A DNA stretch of 64,000 bases from Amoebidium appalachense (GCA_963693365.1 CAVNZM010000013.1:6376640-6440639), one strand, 5' to 3'. Shown: positions 9,301 to 12,300, counted from the stretch's first letter. The notes: generated by a model not told the origin, from the sequence alone. Numbers and translations are program-made.

Positions 9301-12300
9301 TGCAACTTTAAGCCCCGGCCTTTCCCCCTGCCCTTGCCTGCATAAGCAACCCTGCTCGTCTCTGATCAAGACGGGTGACCTATTCATGTTCAAGTGAAAC
9401 AGTATCTGAGTTGGGTTTCGTTAACGAGGTGAATAGGTCGAAACTCGGGTACTGTGGATGACGTGGGCCCCCCCTGAGGATGGGCTCTGCTTATTATGCA
9501 TACTCTTTATGTATGACTTGCATTCTGCATCGTGTTATCCGTTTGTTCTTGTGCACTTCGTACTTTTTGACACATTCAAACCCCCTCCCCCCCCCCCCCC
9601 CTCTCCCCCCACAAACCCACACACACACCCGAGGATTTCCGCCCTCCCCTCCCTTCCCCCCTCCCGTAACGGCCCAACACCTCTCCCCTGAACCTTTCCT
9701 ATTCTTGGATACCACTCTCGTTCCATCTCTCGGTGTTTCTTTCGTTTTTTTTTTTTTTTTTGAATTCTGCGGCCAGAAAGAATCAGACAAGGGAGAAAAT
9801 TCCCTGTCACGTCTTGTCCGAAATAACCATTTGTATGGTAATAAGTAATGCCATTTATGACCAAAATATCTAAGGTGATTCCAGACGTCATTTTGACGTC
9901 ATGGTGATGTTCGTCTGTGTGCTGCCAGGTCAAGCTATGGACACACCAATTCCTCTTGTGCACCGACACAAAAACACACACGCATACGTTCCCACACGCA
10001 CACGCACACATGCGTACATATACACCCCAGACACACACGTACACACATACACACACATGTACACGCGCACACACACCTATTTACCCACCCACCGACACCC
10101 ACACACACGTACACAAGTACACACACACAACACACACACACAACACACACACACACACACACACACACACACACACACACACACACACACACACACACAC
10201 ACACACACACACACACACACACACACACACACACACACACCACACACACACACACACACACACACCTACATCCACTTCACACACGCCTCTAGCGCATACA
10301 CACACACGAACACACGAACACACACACACACGTACACACACACGTACACACGACGCCTAAGGCAGGGACTAAGTCCGCTAGTGTGTATTTTACGTTCTAG
10401 ACCAACGCTTAGCAAATGAACGTGTGGTGATGCGCTCCTTAGGTCACCGTTCATTTTGGTGTAACTAACGTTGGCAGAGCACCCTTGTAAGCTCACTGGT
10501 TCTATTCACACTGCCTGTACACGGTTTTATGCATTTACCTAACTATAAATACATGGTATACAAGCCCGAGTATTATTATTAAATTACCACTCCGTGTCAT
10601 CTACTTTCCCATCTACAACATACACGTACACACACACGTACACACACGTGCACACACACGTACACACACACGTACAGGGTTCTTCAACATGTGGGCTGCC
10701 CTTTATGCCGGTCTTGTGTTCCCTATCTACTGCTGTGTGCTCCTCATGACTGGCCCCAGACCAGACCAAACACAACAAAACACACAGCCCCCCCCCACAT
10801 GTCGTAAGTGTTCACCTCTTTCGTTGGTTTTCCACTGCTTTCTCCCCTCTCACATTCTTCTCTCACTGCCCCCTCCACCCCCCCCTCCCCCCGCCACGCC
10901 CCCCCCCCCCCACCCCTCCCACCCCCACCCTCCCCCTTCATCCCTCACTCCTTTTGGTTGTTCTTTGTGTCGTCGATCAAAACTAAAAGGATTAAAGTCA
11001 TTTCACACGGATCCCCCCCCCCACCCCCCACCTCCTCTACCCTCCCCCGGGGAAAGAAAAAAAAAAACATCCCCCCCCCCCCCCCGGCCCTCCTTTCCCC
11101 CCCAGTTCCCTGTTTGTTATGGTGGCTTTCTGCCACCATCGTATTTCTGTTGTTTTCCGCGGCGTTACCTTTAACCCCTTTGTATCTCATCATACCGTAT
11201 ATATCCCCCCCCCCCCCCCCCCCCCCCCCCCCCCCCCCCCCCCCCAAACAAAGAAAGAAAGAAAGAAAGAAAGAAAAACGAAAGAAAAAAAGGAAAAAGG
11301 AGAAAGGAAAAAAGGGCCCACTGAACACCCACGTGCACAGCATATATTTGCACATCGACACAGGAAAGAAAGAGGAGAAATCAGGAGTGACCGTTAAAGA
11401 AATTACTGTGCTCTACCGAGTGAAAGCAAATCGGTTGATGCTAATTCATCCCTCCCCCCGCCCCTCCCCACCCCCCACCCACCCTCCCCCCACCTTCTTC
11501 CCGCACTTATTCTGCTGTCACATTTACCCCCTCTCCTCCCCCCCCCCCCCCCCCCCCCCCCCCCCCCTCTTACCCCCTAACCCCCTACCCCTACCCCCCT
11601 CTAATCACACACCAACACACACACATCCCCCCTCCCTGTCTCTCTCTCTCTCTCCCCCCTCCCCCCCCCCCCCCCCCCCCCCCCCCCCCCCCCCTCCAGA
11701 TACCCATCCAACCGGAGGTGCGATGGCTAACCTACTGGACGGTATTTGCACCATACAAGGTAATAAACCCCCCCCCCCCCCCCCCCCCCCACACACACAC
11801 ACACACACACACCACGCCCCCCATGCATCAACCTTGAACCCTCGTACCTTCATGTGAGCAATCAGGTTGGGGATGTGTTTGTGCATGTGTGAGTTTGTGT
11901 GTGTGTGAGTGCGTGTGAGAATTTGAGTGTGGGCGGGCGGGCGGGCGGGCGGGCGTGTGGGTGGGTGGGTGGGTGGGTGGGTGGGTGGGTGGGGTGTGTG
12001 TGTGTGTGTGTGTGTGTTGTGTCATGTGTGTTGTGTGTTGTGTCATGTGTCATGTGTCATGTGTCATGTGTGATGTGTGATGTGTGATGCGTGATGCGTG
12101 TGGGTATGTGTGTGTGTGTGTGTTGAGAAGGTCGTGATGGCGAGGGGTGTTCGGCTGGGTCGGTGAGCAGTGCAATTTGTTGGGTGTTTGACTTCCTTTT
12201 TTGGCACTGCCACGATTCTCCTAGGAACATTTGCATTCTTGATCTCTGATGTGTGATTTGCCTGGTCGTGTCGCCATCCCCCCTCCCCCCCCCCCTCCTT

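Follow-up and report, generated by a model that had tools for sequence, protein, structure and literature searches.

The window analysed here, a stretch of 64,000 nucleotides from Amoebidium appalachense (GCA_963693365.1, CAVNZM010000013.1:6376640-6440639), is eukaryotic DNA rich in microsatellites that contains a C2H2 zinc-finger gene, a Myb exon and at least 12 related copies of a repeat with a common 3' end and differing 5' truncation points. One of these copies (copy B; Table 1) carries a motif of about 155 bases near its 3' end that has the parts of a hammerhead ribozyme. Taken as a whole, it is probable that the motif is a hammerhead-type fold of non-circular order in the 3' tail of a high-copy, C-run-associated, likely Penelope-like repeat, with a core likely opened between A9 and G10.1 and a predicted cut after U9412.

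From 5' to 3', the first half of the motif consists of helix P1, hairpin Y, stem II, helix P, the kink-turn, stem III, GUU and stem I, and the second half of linker Z, the 3' strand of stem II, GAAA, the 3' strands of stem III, helix P and stem I, CUGANGA, a U and the 3' strand of P1. The hallmarks of a hammerhead are present, namely CUGANGA, GAAA with an A15.1-U16.1 pair, and an NUH triplet between stems III and I. In copy B, stem III forms 13 of 13 pairs and stem I 3 of 3; stem I likewise has three pairs in copy C and four in copy A, where A-U replaces G-C. Stems I, II and III all abut the core, provided that stem II uses the upstream strand 9377-9382. An alternative eight-pair helix (9413-9420/9439-9446) could mask GAAA in copy B, with a folding probability of 0.02-0.10; it is not kept in copies A or C.

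An earlier note on this DNA had recognised three core strands (a, stem III-GUU-stem I; c, stem II-GAAA-stem III; b, stem I-CUGAGGA), and these were found where it had placed them, together with stems I and III. The order that it had read as a-c-b, that is, cleavage site, GAAA and CUGANGA, was confirmed, and its expectation that strand b returns as a pseudoknot agrees with the crossing of the remaining helices by stems I and II. Its outer helix (9383-9392/9459-9467), here helix P, forms nine of nine pairs with one bulge, three of them G-U. However, the note gave no 5' strand for stem II, and the position after CUGAGGA, where a plain a-c-b order would place it, pairs poorly; its three-strand picture was incomplete, leaving out P1, hairpin Y and the kink-turn pattern.

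Table 1. Predicted parts of the hammerhead-type motif in copy B, and copies of the host repeat in the window
Feature	Position	Strand	Remarks
Helix P1, 5' strand	9342..9352	+	Outer 9342-9348, inner 9350-9352
Hairpin Y, 8 pairs	9354..9376	+	6-base palindrome in loop, 9363-9368
Stem II, 5' strand	9377..9382	+	Proposed G10.1 = G9377
Helix P, 5' strand	9383..9392	+	Outer helix of the earlier note
Kink-turn pattern, bulge strand	9393..9398	+	3-base bulge, then G9396, A9397, A9398 opposite A9458, G9457, G9456
Stem III, 5' strand	9399..9411	+	Last base U16.1 = U9411
NUH triplet GUU	9410..9412	+	Cut after U9412 predicted by analogy
Stem I, 5' strand	9413..9415	+	
Linker Z, between blocks S and G	9416..9433	+	10-base palindrome 9418-9427
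Stem II, 3' strand	9434..9439	+	C11.1 = C9439
Core G12-A13-A14-A15.1 (GAAA)	9440..9443	+	
Stem III 3' strand, kink-turn partner and helix P 3' strand	9443..9467	+	9443-9455, 9456-9458 and 9459-9467, respectively
Stem I 3' strand, core C3-A9 (CUGAGGA) and extra U	9471..9481	+	9471-9473, 9474-9480 and U9481, respectively
Helix P1, 3' strand	9482..9494	+	Inner 9482-9484, outer 9488-9494
Copy B of host repeat	8831..9580	+	5'-truncated, between two C-runs; 5' start by eye; family coverage from 8890
Candidate end of element reading frame	8881..9099	+	Two stops close the frame, 9094-9099
Copy A, complete motif	6849..7008	+	77% identical to B; predicted cut after 6922
Copy C, complete motif	5056..5213	+	64% identical to B; predicted cut after 5127
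Copy D, decayed	49257..49449	+	G8 lost, stem III with mismatches; no recognisable hairpin Y or 5' strand of stem II
Copy E, 5'-truncated	51186..51339	+	Begins downstream of cut site
Copy F, 5'-truncated	24121..24261	-	Copy J (23935-24046) head-to-tail across C-run
Copy G, 5'-truncated	50113..50228	+	
Copy H, 5'-truncated	4806..4900	+	
Copy I, diverged, 5'-truncated	32718..32886	-	

The three complete copies, A, B and C, are pairwise 62-77% identical and all keep CUGANGA, GAAA and GUU; the latter two motifs are retained in four of four copies when decayed copy D, which has lost G8, is included. In a six-row alignment, 91.3% of 172 cells were paired and 14 of 50 pairs showed two-sided change. 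Neither value was reached in any of 500 shuffles, and slid controls gave 36-43% paired cells with 0-3 two-sided pairs. The two-sided changes fall in stem III (5/13 pairs), helix P (5/9), stem II (2) and outer P1 (2). The stem of hairpin Y is invariant in all three copies, so that its lack of two-sided change is uninformative either way, and the A-U for G-C exchange in stem I of copy A was seen by anchored comparison, the automatic alignment misplacing stem I. In the sequencing runs, no variants at the 5% or 2% threshold were found on core bases, though most positions had no row. Sequence and covariation together demonstrate the core bases, stems I and III, outer stem II, helix P, outer P1 and hairpin Y.

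A descriptor written for this arrangement, with thresholds chosen after the copies had been seen, matched three of three complete copies and nothing on the minus strand, in 300 dinucleotide-shuffled windows or among 121 loci chosen beforehand because they contain both core motifs. Coincidence in repetitive DNA might be entertained on the grounds that short motifs are common (18 CUGANGA sites lie in the window) and that no Rfam family passes, but it was rejected on the shuffled windows, the motif-selected loci and the 14 pairs with two-sided change, and its probability is negligible. The Rfam scan gave no match at the gathering score and one partial match to Hammerhead_1, whose 14.2 bits fall short of the cut-off of 34, in line with the earlier note's expectation that standard descriptors would probably miss the motif. 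Pattern scans of other collections gave one match in viral contigs, in an unrelated context, and 120 loci in metagenome contigs, none of which passes the descriptor or convincingly fits the family profile (best E 0.004); the hairpin Y pattern had no matches in viral and prokaryote collections. Three other hammerhead assignments were discarded: a canonical type III in which linker Z serves as stem I (it is not followed by CUGANGA), a minus-strand hammerhead (no descriptor match), and CUGAUCA in the hairpin Y loop as a second core (it becomes UUGGCCA in copy C).

Several observations weigh against the proposed fold. Only three complete copies are at hand and their alignment contains small register errors; moreover, the structure was derived from the same related copies, which makes the covariation controls lenient. 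In minimum-energy folding, the region does not surpass shuffled sequences (z -1.32, with a program incapable of pseudoknots). Copy B carries a private U9383, where the family has C at about 100%, that lengthens stem II, and when folded without pseudoknots it forms stem III with a probability of 0.19, compared with 0.97 with the family base at 9383; copy C also folds away from stem III (probability 0.16). Because the private base favours a longer stem II over stem III, copy B is not the best choice for an assay. Two family variants in the deep runs, U9384C (about 31-40% of depth) and U9430G (about 53-63%), each weaken the stem II extension that competes with helix P.

The identity of the 5' strand of stem II determines whether the hammerhead core is continuous. 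Directly after CUGAGGA, the first stem II pair would be a U-C mismatch, and a downstream register with one extra U gives two pairs followed by a mismatch in the four copies examined. The upstream strand 9377-9382, in contrast, forms six of six pairs in copy B, five consecutive pairs in copy C and four of the first five in copy A. Its duplex is the stronger one in each of the three complete copies (-6.7 versus -2.2, -2.2 versus +0.5 and -6.4 versus -4.6 kcal/mol for the downstream strand). Two of the six upstream pairs show two-sided change. Meanwhile, the bases after CUGAGGA-U pair with 9342-9352 in helix P1, and hairpin Y occupies the gap between P1 and G9377. Since the strand after CUGAGGA-U pairs in P1 and the stem II partner lies upstream, the block that contains CUGANGA (block C) is likely split, two extra helices probably opening the core between A9 and G10.1. 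Both U9381C (2.3-3.5% of depth) and A9435G (2.9-4.4%) are present in four deep DNA-type runs; they match the expectation for a compensatory pair, with presence counted per position, and may come from A-subfamily contigs. Additionally, the single stem II mismatch of copy A is repaired in the loose ends of A-type contigs. On the other side, no two-sided change was found in the two inner stem II pairs or the three inner P1 pairs, so covariation leaves the split unproven in the host repeat; stem I is short (3-4 pairs), and a two-pair downstream stem II is possible in all three complete copies.

The last point leads to an alternative. In Eckert et al. 2023 (PMC10085705), correctly named by the earlier note as a source for non-circular permutations, six block orders are defined, of which S-G-C is type SGC. 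The order a-c-b corresponds to this type, so the order itself is already published, while the likely split of block C makes the present form differ from published SGC. If block C were instead intact, the motif would be a type SGC with a very short stem II, in which G9482/G9483 pair with C9439/U9438 and the upstream strand only extends the helix outward. The two pairs do form in the downstream register in four of four copies, a widened descriptor that needs only these two pairs matches all three complete copies, the extra U agrees with the published SGC descriptor, the UGG that follows A9 does not vary among the aligned copies, and the two inner upstream stem II pairs never vary. However, the third position is mismatched in 4/4 copies, the upstream duplex is the stronger one in 3/3, G9482-G9484 already have partners in P1, and six of the nine split-layout records of Naiad elements described below offer no G for this register (by eye). 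We consider an intact SGC core rather unlikely. Self-cleavage in one or the other of the two stem II registers is considered likely.

A kink-turn pattern joins helix P to stem III in 4/4 copies. By the consensus rule, a kink-turn has a three-base bulge followed by tandem G-A and A-G between two helices, and it is a protein-binding motif. Palindromes occur at two other places. The six-base palindrome in the hairpin Y loop is changed at two positions in copy C and is still palindromic there. In linker Z, the palindromes are 10, 10 and 8 bases long in the three complete copies (shuffle p 0.01, 0.013 and 0.04) and 4 bases long in decayed copy D. The shuffle test responds to hairpins as well as to palindromes, although as hairpins these sequences are weak (-1.5 to -3.2 kcal/mol). 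The palindromes in hairpin Y and linker Z suggest that dimers may form; palindrome-driven dimers have reportedly been described for minimal hammerheads.

The opened core would be held together as follows. P1 and hairpin Y would replace the direct A9-G10.1 link and bring G9377 to the core, and helix P would tether the distal ends of stems I and II to each other, a role that the I-II helix has in type SGC. The kink-turn would form a sharp bend between helix P and stem III; in SGC forms in which the corresponding helix runs directly into stem III, Eckert et al. had difficulty accounting for this bend (PMC10085705). By analogy, a cut after U9412 would be of the usual hammerhead type, leaving a cyclic phosphate and a 5'-OH at G9413. 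Completion of the core would have to await the closing of P1, some 80 bases beyond the cut site. As 38 pairs would still join both products, they would remain associated in a nicked RNA that could re-ligate. From tandem or read-through transcripts, unit-length element RNA might be excised and possibly circularised, and dimers may form through the palindromes of hairpin Y and linker Z.

A conserved fold without autonomous cutting, either a protein-dependent ribozyme or a platform for reverse transcriptase (RT) binding or dimerisation, would account for some of these features in another way. The kink-turn as a protein-binding motif, the short stem I, the disfavoured stem III of copies B and C in pseudoknot-free folding, and the retention of both sides of the cut site in complete copies are in its favour. 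The complete copies keep 165 bases downstream of the cut site, so that the inserted template was not trimmed there. Furthermore, one Poseidon element has a hammerhead that cut only with protein and whose mutants still inserted in vitro (PMC11167929), which, like the retained downstream sequence, argues against a simple mechanism. Nevertheless, the catalytic positions and the NUH triplet are kept at 62-77% identity while the stems drift, and the published non-circular forms cut without protein (PMC10085705). A fold of this non-cutting kind appears improbable.

The repeat that hosts the motif was characterised by its copies in the window and by contigs of sequencing runs. In 11 of 12 copies, C makes up at least 70% of the 3' flank, and the 5' flank is C-rich in four of 12, against a background of 4.7% (ends set by eye). 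Insertion in microsatellites and 5' truncation with a shared 3' end are characters of Naiad and Chlamys elements, and both were found here. Such elements also form pseudo-long terminal repeats by partial tandems; here, one head-to-tail pair of unlike copies (F and J) was observed across a C-run. Part of the family is contained in 20 of 24 sequencing runs from seven organisms, of which eight runs were examined in detail; in four deep runs, 5990-9397 contigs per run match the stretch, which indicates a high-copy family and gives no copy number. Two runs guessed to be RNA carry such contigs; they may be DNA, and contigs cannot show RNA ends. The run contigs also extend the family 5' of 8890, and two compensating one-base indels in the family preserve the reading frame that ends at 9094-9099.

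The coding evidence does not favour a Penelope-like host. Neither RT nor GIY-YIG endonuclease was found in the window (0/148 and 0/15 translations), and no credible homolog was identified for the frame that precedes the motif (no match among 18 candidates and no atlas match). The window contains no full-length copy in which the protein characters of Naiad/Chlamys elements, an N-terminal GIY-YIG, a CxC motif and an RT with IFD, might be read. A set of 31 matches of this frame to long proteins over short repeated stretches was rejected as chance; the four that were checked are three SdrD-like repeat proteins and one DUF5121 protein. By its habit rather than by protein, the host is likely a Penelope-like retroelement of the Naiad/Chlamys kind. 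The ribozyme as described could also sit in a short interspersed nuclear element, the tail of a long interspersed nuclear element or a retrozyme that acquired the motif, an option that concerns the host only and overlaps the other readings. It draws on the RT and endonuclease not found in window translations and candidate-frame searches, on two short probes without a match to Naiad/Chlamys consensus sequences and on the lack of a clear pseudo-long terminal repeat (pseudo-LTR) in the window. However, 5' truncation, shared 3' ends, microsatellite targets and the lack of a poly(A) tail fit Penelope-like elements, Naiad records end in the same layout, and the family continues 5' of 8890. A host of this other kind is unlikely, though it keeps an appreciable chance.

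Additional, more diverged 3' ends stop at C-runs (52026-52166 +, 22514-22617 -, 3172-3257 +, 40176-40398 - and 10-126 +) and are probably further subfamilies; one of them keeps CUGAUGA at 52038. As for the neighbouring genes, a single-exon C2H2 zinc-finger frame of 280 residues lies at 40951-41790 on the minus strand (best relatives 28-39% identical), and pieces of a multi-exon Myb gene lie at 46286-50800 on the plus strand, with a Pfam match at 48819-49088 and, judged by eye, another repeat-like piece close to 50750. The Myb gene appears to hold copies D and G in its introns, on the same strand. Two long open frames on the minus strand, 17940-22436 (1499 codons) and 59776-61482 (569 codons), have no Pfam match.

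Craig et al. 2021 (PMC8557442) reported that Naiad and most Chlamys elements have no canonical hammerheads, flagged some sequences as 'HHR_core' or 'HHR_half_core' (eight half cores, whose second half lies at a distance of 35-50 bases), and gave (C)n and (CA)n as insertion targets of Chlamys and (TA)n as the preference of Naiad. In the passages of File S5 of that work, compared by eye, the split layout was found in nine of 54 Naiad consensus records: the first record, Naiad_Amil, Naiad_Aacu, Naiad_Anas, one in part 12, and those preceding Naiad_Plae, Naiad_Ovul, Naiad_Omin and Naiad_Adux. Intact type CSG was found in six records. As the other Naiad records are represented in part or not at all, nine and six are lower bounds. 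In six of the nine split records no G follows A9 or A9 plus U, which makes the downstream register impossible there; in two octopus records a G follows, as in the window, and the record before Naiad_Adux has a weak stem II. The hairpin Y loop is palindromic in two split records and near-palindromic in a third. Where helix P meets stem III, a kink-turn-like pattern can likewise be read by eye in the records before Naiad_Ovul and Naiad_Omin; its bulge lies on the other strand, compared with the window copies. In the record before Naiad-2_Movir, the 3' end looks twister-like by eye, and would suggest that Naiads need a ribozyme there.

The host repeat thus resembles Naiad elements in its strand order with P1 and hairpin Y, some of whose Naiad counterparts have palindromic loops, and in 5' truncation, microsatellite targets and high copy number. 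Unlike Naiads, which are animal elements at (TA)n, it sits at C-runs as Chlamys does and has a long palindromic linker between blocks S and G. The two short probes gave no sequence match to the Naiad/Chlamys consensus sequences. It also tells against the proposed kinship that the layout was found by eye in none of the Chlamys passages, even though C-run targeting is a Chlamys habit, and that the Naiad comparison was made by eye on the returned passages only. Tentatively, and with slightly less than even confidence, we propose a broader view: a hammerhead open at a fourth place (A9/G10.1) may form a kink-turn-bent, non-circular double pseudoknot that may work as a dimer, and the opened form and CSG may be overlooked ribozymes of Penelope-like elements with an N-terminal endonuclease, represented here by a C-run-targeting family whose host may lie outside animals. 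If this is true, the puzzle of Naiad success without a hammerhead (PMC8557442) would be answered, as many would seem to have one that is invisible to descriptors. In addition, non-circular hammerheads would move from unassigned metatranscriptome contigs to eukaryotic genomes, at high copy. The contribution of the window is a C-run-associated host family, three diverged covarying copies and the two palindromes.

No description of this layout, or of non-circular hammerheads in retroelements, was found in a search for which subscription journals and preprint supplements were mostly out of reach, and the layout is not described in the passages of PMC3088659, PMC10162972, bioRxiv 2026.09.16.752053, PMC6765202 and PMC13725137. 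Hammerheads with additional helices were reported by Weinberg et al. 2015, as cited by PMC13725137; by that citing sentence alone, these variants carry extra helices on a hammerhead core, as here, and they may bear on the opened core. The motif shares its core bases and its position near the 3' end or pseudo-LTR with the type I hammerheads of Penelope/Poseidon, Neptune and Hydra elements and retrozymes (PMC8557442, bioRxiv 2026.07.22.740005, PMC11167929), and presumably their processing role. Those canonical type I forms, however, are nested three-way junctions, circularly permuted and without a core pseudoknot; indeed, the motif differs from types I, II and III alike, because its order is not circularly permuted and its stems cross.

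The closest published relatives are the non-circular forms of Eckert et al. (PMC10085705), of which SGC and CSG cleave in vitro without protein. Like type SGC (HRIMA-1 and variants), the motif places its blocks in the order S, G, C, has two core stems that form pseudoknots, carries an additional U behind CUGANGA and connects the far sides of stems I and II through a helix. The published SGC pattern, re-coded, gave no match as published or with N7 free and spacers widened; it matched the three complete copies only when a two-pair stem II was also allowed. Type SGC is at most 104 bases long, compared with about 155 here, and its descriptor allows at most 8 bases between blocks S and G, compared with 18-21. 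Moreover, type SGC had no example in the genome of any known organism (PMC10085705), whereas the present motif sits in a eukaryotic repeat. Block C is continuous in SGC; here the stem II strand lies upstream, and P1 and hairpin Y are added. In type CSG, represented by two metagenome sequences (PMC10085705), the circular block order is the same and block C is intact, so the present motif can be described as the CSG circle opened inside block C. Eckert et al. worked on the assumption that nothing can interrupt block C, CUGANGA being inseparable from the stems on either side of it; if the opened core is real, this assumption would be overturned.

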